From positions 55-64,054 of the forward strand of contig CAYNNN010000003.1 in the NCBI GenBank assembly GCA_964398665.1: 64,000 bases of DNA, read 5' to 3'. Of the stretch, positions 37,223-37,325 are shown piece by piece; the first letter of the stretch is position 1, and every line of letters begins with the position of its first letter. The notes under the pieces were generated by a model. The model worked only from the letters and a program-made list of their open reading frames with translations, was not told where the DNA came from and ran no database searches. A program made the position numbers and the translations under genes. Source of the DNA: an uncultured Gammaproteobacteria bacterium. GTDB lineage: Bacteria > Pseudomonadota > Gammaproteobacteria > CAYNNN01.

Positions 37223-37325
37223 CTCCCGGGCTTTTGTCCCGCCGTGTAACCCTCGCTGTGAAGGTCGGTTGCTCTCGGACCAGCATCGCAAGCACTCAAC
37301 TCCGCGACCGGAACCCTAGCAGCCT
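37223..37325 (-). ncRNA. ykkC: guanidine-I riboswitch (ykkC class) aptamer
   Basis: Minus-strand RNA reads AGGCUGCUAGGGUUCCGGUCGCGGAGUUGAGUGCUUGCGAUGCUGGUCCGAGAGCAACCGACCUUCACAGCGAGGGUUACACGGCGGGACAAAAGCCCGGGAG. Contains the hallmark CUAGGGUUCCG, GGUCCGAGAG and ACGGCGGGACAAAAGCCCGGGAG blocks. Lies 63 nt upstream of the SBP start of a carboxylase/DUF1989/allophanate hydrolase/ABC operon. Confidence 0.9.

Follow-up and report, generated by a model that had tools for sequence, protein, structure and literature searches.

Organization of the locus

Within the window (the whole stretch of DNA that was analysed, 64,000 nucleotides), seven open reading frames on the minus strand are packed tightly (neighbours overlap or lie no more than 68 nt apart) and are preceded by a guanidine-I (ykkC subtype 1) aptamer (Table 1). 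The gene order given in a preliminary description of this DNA, i.e., substrate-binding protein (SBP), permease, ATPase, two DUF1989 proteins, carboxylase, and allophanate hydrolase, agrees with the Pfam and NCBIfam matches, and all five TIGR matches (TIGR03427, TIGR03425, TIGR03424, TIGR02712, and TIGR02713) exceed the curated cut-offs of their families. The N-terminus of the first-gene product is signal-peptide-like, and the signal peptide begins at position 37159. An exact-protein look-up returned no record with the sequence of this protein.

Guanidine carboxylases are told apart from urea carboxylases by an aspartate at the position of residue 1330 in the K. lactis enzyme, together with a conserved aspartate near position 1584 (PMC11410670). 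As for the first of these, Asp701 of the carboxylase in the window is placed opposite Asn737 of 3va7, which is Asn1330 in K. lactis numbering (offset 593, derived from 5i8i); as for the second, Asp955 aligns with the conserved aspartate of the GLGD motif, one residue off the published number. Judged from these alignments and the family matches, the carboxylase bears the guanidine-type aspartate signature, and the DUF1989 pair is predicted to be CgdA/CgdB. In the pathway described for such genes, which is known to be under guanidine-riboswitch control, guanidine is taken up by ABC import and converted to carboxyguanidine, then to allophanate, and finally to ammonia (PMC12186494, PMC11410670). 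All protein families and both aspartates that characterize an operon of the guanidine carboxylase pathway were found at the locus, and the encoded proteins are predicted to import guanidine and degrade it to ammonia. The earlier designation of the operon as the canonical ykkC regulon is borne out, since the family matches and the aspartate signature identify it as a guanidine-carboxylase regulon.

On the same strand, the allophanate hydrolase gene is followed by urease genes (ureA, 26918-27220; ureC, 24872-26575; region 24872-27612), and the gap of ~390 nt between the allophanate hydrolase and urease genes holds a 108-residue open reading frame (27201-27527) that has no family match. An Rfam match to RF02514 (Helicobacter 5' ureB sRNA; 97.9 bits; 26140-26426, plus strand) lies opposite the urease alpha-subunit gene (24872-26575, minus strand), in antisense orientation; its most likely source is the conserved coding sequence of urease, not an sRNA gene.

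Table 1. Positions of the genes, RNA elements, and candidate promoter elements at the locus, in window coordinates.
Feature	Position	Strand	Basis
NtrC-like palindrome TGCACCTGTCGCGTGCA, tentative	37474..37490	-	80 nt upstream of the -24 element
Sigma-54 type -24/-12 promoter TGGCACGCATCTTGCT, candidate	37395..37410	-	motif match and conservation
5' leader strand GCGCGAGCG	37372..37380	-	potential 9 pairs (3 G-U) with X UGCUUGCGU at 37206-37198
Guanidine-I aptamer (ykkC subtype 1)	37221..37330	-	RF00442, full length
P1	37324-37319 with 37272-37267	-	Rfam alignment; one C-A mismatch
P1a/P1b	around a 12-nt loop	-	Rfam alignment
P2	37266-37260 with 37254-37248	-	Rfam alignment
P3	37240-37238 with 37230-37228	-	Rfam alignment
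Pocket residues	ACACGGC 37247-37241; GGGAG 37227-37223; G-A bulge 37276-37275	-	sequence; roles from PMC5340920
Motif block CUAGGGUUCCG	37319-37309	-	sequence
Motif block GGUCCGAGAG	37281-37272	-	sequence
Motif block ACACGGCGGGACAAAAGCCCGGGAG	37247-37223	-	sequence
P2 5' strand and loop CUUCACAG, proposed anti-Shine-Dalgarno element (A)	37256..37263	-	folds and comparative tests
Linker and expression platform	37160..37220	-	sequence, folds, comparison with nearest relative L001
Small hairpin of linker	37220-37207	-	sequence, folds
Element X UGCUUGCGU	37206-37198	-	sequence, folds, L001 comparison
Element Y GCCGUGUUAAUUC	37197-37185	-	sequence, folds, L001 comparison
ABC importer periplasmic substrate-binding protein (first gene)	36101..37159	-	TIGR03427 equivalog, 557 bits (cut-off 334); Pfam NMT1
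ABC permease	35270..36091	-	PF00528
ABC ATPase	34503..35363	-	PF00005; maximal ORF coordinates, true start probably further downstream
DUF1989 protein, UAAP1 type (carboxyguanidine deiminase subunit)	33751..34506	-	PF09347; TIGR03425, 337 bits
DUF1989 protein, UAAP2 type (carboxyguanidine deiminase subunit)	33101..33841 (maximal ORF)	-	PF09347; TIGR03424, 341 bits
Biotin-dependent carboxylase, annotated 'urea carboxylase', 1202 aa	29424..33032	-	TIGR02712, 1845 bits
Allophanate hydrolase	27613..29427	-	TIGR02713, 813 bits; Amidase and AH_C domains

Identity and anatomy of the aptamer

A scan of the whole window with Rfam 15 matched RF00442 (Guanidine-I) on the minus strand (37330..37221) over model positions 1-107 of 107, with E=3.5e-13 for the whole 64 kb searched with 4227 families. 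The preliminary description had named a cmsearch score below the gathering threshold as grounds for discarding the element; the score obtained is 82.5 bits, and the gathering score is 63. Both the Rfam scan and an aptamer profile find this single guanidine-I match in the 64-kb window, and a permissive scan (E up to 10) of positions 37000-37500 gave no match to other ykkC-like Rfam families. The near-textbook ykkC conservation reported earlier holds in that all three quoted motif blocks are present on the minus strand.

In the Dickeya dadantii riboswitch, a G-A bulge within the internal loop of P1 forms the guanidine pocket together with CACGGC and the GGGAG tail, with pairs C64-G84, C66-G87, G67-A86, G68-G85, and C69-G83 (PMC5340920). 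With the correspondence between Dickeya and window numbering inferred from these published pairs, every pocket nucleotide is found in the window, i.e., G37276 and A37275 (the bulge in CCGAGAG), CACGGC at 37246-37241, and GGGAG at 37227-37223. The position that marks the subtype is an adenosine in guanidine-I aptamers (A46 in Reiss, A38 in Dickeya), whereas subtype 2 carries a pyrimidine (PMC6031431); it is A37275 in the window, and the pocket-floor position 37243 is a guanosine. When the window is aligned with 42 relatives, taken from upstream of homologous genes, all invariant columns are intact in the window, and RNAalifold reports changes that compensate on both sides at 12 of the 24 predicted pairs; the P3 and P1a pairs are invariant throughout the alignment. 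By every sequence-level feature of the class, the element is a genuine guanidine-I riboswitch, and the RNA spanning 37330..37221 is predicted to bind guanidine. Taking the identity of the aptamer and the function of the operon together, we have very little doubt about either.

Conservation of the aptamer-gene association

The first-gene product retrieves 80 genome loci, the best of which is from Candidatus Thiothrix namsaraevi with 82% amino-acid identity. In 73 of these loci, the aptamer profile locates an aptamer on the same strand and at most 450 nt upstream of the SBP homologue; the exceptions are six Azospirillum-type loci, in which the profile places it about 7 kb upstream, and one truncated locus. 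An independent set of 80 metagenome loci gave an upstream aptamer for 69 of 75 SBP homologues. Aptamer identity, gene content, and this conserved association are direct observations. A protein-based scan of the metagenomes found no homologues with more than 75% identity, and because of this, window-specific covariation could be read from one locus, the nearest relative L001; a search of the metagenomes for closer relatives by leader pattern also found none.

In the Azospirillum loci (L032, L052, L054, L055, L059, and L064), the aptamer precedes the binding-protein gene by about 5-7 kb, so the gene order within the riboswitch-controlled operon differs. Some relatives have two guanidine-I aptamers, either divergent and back to back (L039, 2575-3098; L042, 3234-3937) or ~10 kb apart on opposite strands (L046, 6438-6541 and 16674-16772; L049, 9711-9807 and 19571-19674). 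Alphaproteobacterial relatives with linkers of 98-134 nt (e.g., L010, L028, L033, L011, and L076) have a sigma-54 motif that abuts the 5' end of the aptamer and leaves no leader, and some long-linker alphaproteobacterial relatives show candidates for a hairpin followed by a U-run just before the start codon. The expression platform of these long-linker relatives seems to differ from that in the window.

Candidate promoter and upstream region

An exact match to TGGCAC-N5-TTGC at 37410-37396, the only one in the window, places the predicted transcription start near 37384, about 54 nt upstream of the aptamer. Within 260 nt upstream of the aptamer, a relaxed form of the sigma-54 motif is matched in ~40% of the loci (32 of 72 from genomes, 24 of 63 from metagenomes); the background is 0.0067 per 260 nt, with ~0.5 expected. 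The motif occurs at two fixed distances before the aptamer, about 66-99 nt and about 29-35 nt. The palindrome further upstream resembles the NtrC consensus. A similar palindrome with at most one mismatch is present in 8 of the 32 loci that carry the sigma-54 motif, where the background is 0.0087 per 220 nt. The candidate sigma-54 promoter is most likely where transcription starts, and the motif and the NtrC-like palindrome together suggest that the operon probably receives a nitrogen input. NtrC-dependent expression has been reported for the homologous 'urea carboxylase' cluster in Burkholderia cenocepacia (PMC5491218).

A second riboswitch, a manganese (yybP-ykoY) element matching RF00080 with 82.3 bits (gathering score 45), is located at 37544-37728 on the plus strand, divergent from the guanidine operon and upstream of a gene for a cation transporter of the GDT1/UPF0016 family (open reading frame 37595-38290, plus strand). 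The guanidine and manganese riboswitch units have one common intergenic region of about 210 bp.

Linker and candidate Shine-Dalgarno pairing

The spacing of 63 nt between aptamer and first gene reported in the preliminary description is exact, with the aptamer tail ending at 37223 and the ATG at 37159-37157. The proposed GGAGAU ribosome-binding site is likewise in place as a Shine-Dalgarno sequence (SD) at 37171-37166, 6 nt before the ATG; the same hexamer is present a second time in the aptamer tail (37226-37221). An in-frame ATG at 37207-37205 was rejected as the start because of its wrong spacing from GGGAG, its absence from L001, and the start of the signal peptide at 37159.

In the minimum free-energy fold, CUUCACAG (37263-37256) forms eight pairs with CUGUGGAG (37175-37168), which covers the SD, and the SD is paired to 37263-37260 with a probability of 0.64-0.74. 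The unconstrained fold of the leader also joins GGGUUACACGGC with GCCGUGUUAAUUC. Three candidate pairings were evaluated in 28 non-redundant relatives with similar linker length and again in 16 independent metagenome loci. The pairing of the P2 5' strand with the SD amounts to -12.4 kcal/mol in the window, where 3% of shuffles are equally good, and beats shuffles (at most 5% equally good) in 15 of the 28 relatives. Cognate combinations reach -12.25 kcal/mol versus -9.94 kcal/mol for non-cognate ones (p=0.0002), a result replicated in the metagenome loci (p=0.0002), and the 5' half of P2 accounts for half or more of the predicted SD pairing in 16 of the 28 relatives.

The second pairing, between the P2 3' strand with ACACGG and the linker (GGGUUACACGGC/GCCGUGUUAAUUC), contains the complementarity of CACGGC (37246-37241) to GCCGUG (37197-37192) that had been taken to indicate an expression platform. 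The complement is exact, but the relatives lend it no support; at -19.6 kcal/mol in the window, 11.5% of shuffles are equally good, and the pairing beats shuffles in 7 of the 28 relatives with no cognate-specific signal (p=0.08; metagenome loci, p=0.66). The third, between the aptamer tail and the linker, is at shuffle level in the window (z=-0.04), beats shuffles in 7 of 28 relatives, and gives a cognate p of 0.155, with p=0.03 in the metagenome loci. Pairing of the GGGAG tail with a downstream CUCC-like element was downgraded as a candidate, being marginal in the relatives (p=0.03) and at chance level in the window. These complementarity statistics are observed directly, and they make the P2 5' strand and loop the best-supported element of the expression platform, which suggests a translational ON switch. 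As for the platform acting on 'translation initiation or termination', the two options left side by side in the preliminary description, translation is favoured, and no credible terminator is present.

The 5' leader and a possible helix bracketing the aptamer

Relatives with longer leaders show complementarity between the leader and the first half of the linker, such that a helix could form around the aptamer. Cognate leader and linker combinations give on average -28.8 kcal/mol versus -22.3 kcal/mol for non-cognate ones (p=0.0002), and 12 of 27 relatives are better than 95% of shuffles; the metagenome loci replicate the result (-33.4 versus -25.4 kcal/mol, p=0.0002), and 9 of 16 pass this level. 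In the window alone, the helix between the leader and X is no better than shuffles (z=+0.7). The homologous strands in L001 form 11 pairs, and comparison of the window with L001, read by eye, reveals one fully compensatory change in the helix, from A-U to C-G. The bracketing helix crosses the pairing between the P2 5' strand and the SD, and the two can therefore not both exist as nested structures. In the relatives, the helix around the aptamer is probably part of the ON state, to which we tentatively assign it.

A 14-nt block of the leader, AUCAGUCACCUUGA (37356-37369, minus strand), is identical in L001 (about 9795-9808) and resembles the P2 5' strand GACCUUCA. This block could serve as a second competitor strand.

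Proposed switching mechanism

We infer an ON switch at the level of translation initiation because P2 belongs to the ligand-stabilised fold and its 5' strand is the proposed anti-SD element. In the absence of guanidine, CUUCACAG would pair with the SD region CUGUGGAG, and the adjacent pairing of GGGUUACACGGC with GCCGUGUUAAUUC may assist this state. When guanidine binds, the pocket would lock ACACGGC and GGGAG and stabilise P2, by which the anti-SD strand would be kept within the aptamer and the ribosome-binding site freed for initiation of first-gene translation. Expression of the operon would then need both nitrogen limitation and guanidine. Induction by guanidine and the ON direction have been reported for such operons (PMC12186494). 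We rate a translational ON mechanism through the P2 5' strand as only slightly more probable than not.

Among the free-energy tests, a directional signal was obtained only at the group level with the 5' leaders included. In this folding model, the SD is unpaired with a probability of 0.33 in the aptamer-locked state versus 0.17 (p=1.4e-4), and the cost of opening it is 7.5 kcal/mol in the aptamer-locked state versus 9.5 kcal/mol (p=0.0017). For the window, when the model keeps the leader and puts a locked hairpin in place of the aptamer, it shows no opening of the ribosome-binding site in the aptamer-locked state (8.3 versus 9.0 kcal/mol), and the opening cost of 8.8 kcal/mol in the full leader versus 12.4 kcal/mol in the downstream segment alone goes in the wrong direction for an ON switch. 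Taken by itself, the downstream segment has a fold no better than those of shuffles, and L001 does not share the structure predicted for it. In the nearest-neighbour model, which ignores many non-canonical and tertiary contacts, the aptamer secondary structure is 22-24 kcal/mol above an alternative fold, so any switch would have to work kinetically or draw on tertiary energy outside the model.

A primary effect on translation could also have its output at the RNA level, if failure to translate the first gene leads to Rho termination or RNase decay of the operon mRNA. With genes this close together (gaps of at most 68 nt), control of first-gene translation alone would not obviously govern the enzymes, and control of RNA stability has been reported for guanidine-III riboswitches (PMC12186494). 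Such polarity would extend the translational switch and not replace it, and we consider it unlikely as the explanation of the locus.

Less probable still, and in our view rather improbable, is that the same aptamer acts by transcription termination. The ligand-free tail GCCCGGGAG would in that case enclose the small hairpin by pairing with the downstream UGCUUGC, and polymerase would stop at the U-rich UGUUAAUUCU. Guanidine-I riboswitches are described as usually transcriptional, and those studied use terminators (PMC12186494, PMC12704784); in the Dickeya riboswitch, P3's final eight residues form the 5' half of the terminator (PMC5340920). A lenient scan of the window yields a hairpin of -13.9 kcal/mol followed by UGUUAAUU, and similar cases are present in 6 of 43 short-linker relatives. 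This hairpin, the only one that the lenient scan gave, is an interrupted one formed from the aptamer tail, and we rejected it as an intrinsic terminator: its stem is broken by several mismatches, and the tail that follows has no run longer than two U. A consensus terminator scan found nothing between the aptamer and the gene on the minus strand, and a G+C-rich hairpin that includes the 3' part of P3 and is followed by a U-tract, as expected for a terminator-type platform, is not present. Furthermore, complementarity between the tail and X in the window is at the level of shuffles (z=-0.04), the richness in U is accounted for by the complementarity of the segment to GGUUACAC, and most relatives lack any U-tract.

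It is extremely improbable that the RNA is a ykkC subtype-2 variant, with PRPP, ppGpp, or some other ligand, or a degenerate copy that no longer functions: the overall fold is common to the subtypes, so that a covariance-model match alone leaves the ligand unsettled (PMC6031431), but A37275 and G37243 occupy positions that are pyrimidines in subtype 2, the genes belong to guanidine degradation and not to purine metabolism, all invariant columns are intact, and other Rfam families have no match in the region. The reading that we prefer, i.e., a guanidine-I riboswitch that acts as a translational ON switch on a seven-gene operon transcribed from a sigma-54 promoter, is as a whole moderately probable.

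Implications for annotation and regulation

A guanidine-I element in front of a guanidine carboxylase operon is a well-known association, and the locus is in this respect an ordinary case (PMC12186494, PMC11410670). We found no description of translational wiring, a bracketing helix, or a sigma-54 promoter for guanidine-I riboswitches in the searchable literature, and regard these as modest additions. Whether they amount to a previously undescribed gammaproteobacterial translational platform, in which the P2 5' strand serves as anti-SD, the bracketing helix joins the extreme 5' end of a sigma-54 transcript to the linker and competes with pairing of the aptamer tail, and nitrogen starvation and guanidine form an AND gate, we judge at slightly under an even chance. 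If so, this AND gate differs in design from the terminator-type switches examined to date.

For annotation, the 'urea carboxylase' cluster becomes an operon for guanidine import and degradation, predicted to be induced by guanidine and probably only under nitrogen limitation. On this re-annotation, we predict that the sulfur-bacterium-like host can use guanidine as a nitrogen source. As for the riboswitch, the value is modest and lies in a testable model for how guanidine-I, studied only in the form of terminator switches, may be wired to translation in many Proteobacteria.

Comparison with known systems

A close counterpart is found in Pseudomonas syringae pv. tomato DC3000, where an aptamer of the same class is associated with the same set of genes, i.e., an ABC transporter, carboxyguanidine deiminase subunits, a guanidine carboxylase with the aspartate signature, and allophanate hydrolase (PMC11410670, PMC12186494). 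The host lineage in the window is different, as judged from the first gene with Candidatus Thiothrix namsaraevi as nearest relative (82%), and urease genes follow downstream here. In Raoultella, Klebsiella, and Erwinia, a guanidine-I element precedes importer and deiminase genes of the same pathway (PMC12186494). Unlike the enterobacterial arrangement, where the carboxylase and allophanate hydrolase genes are under a separate guanidine-II riboswitch, all seven genes in the window stand behind one guanidine-I element, and the Rfam scan gave no guanidine-II element in the window.

The conserved nucleotides (G-A bulge, CACGGC, and GGGAG) and the P1/P2/P3 architecture are identical to those of the guanidine-I riboswitches whose structures have been studied, among them the one from Dickeya dadantii (PMC5340920). 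The difference concerns the expression platform. Riboswitches of the Dickeya type have an intrinsic terminator that overlaps P3's final eight residues, whereas the window has no credible terminator, and an anti-SD element provided by the P2 5' strand is better supported.

With respect to nitrogen control, the guanidine-I riboswitch of Synechocystis gdmH follows the same two-input logic as proposed here, with nitrogen limitation and a guanidine riboswitch (PMC12704784). The regulator is a different one, and the pathway is that of guanidinase; the nitrogen input in the window is deduced from motifs. The same distinction applies to the 'urea carboxylase' cluster of Burkholderia cenocepacia, for which dependence on NtrC is reported (PMC5491218), while in the window it is predicted from motifs.

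The bracketing helix has a partial analogue in the P0 helix found in aptamers for PRPP and ppGpp (ykkC subtype 2), which also joins sequences 5' and 3' of the core and is tied to the expression platform (PMC6031431). P0 abuts the core and extends the ligand pocket, whereas the strands of the helix in the window are located ~40-50 nt upstream of P1 and ~15 nt downstream of GGGAG. Unlike the P0-bearing aptamers, the aptamer in the window retains all subtype-1 markers, and the bracketing helix lies outside the Rfam model.
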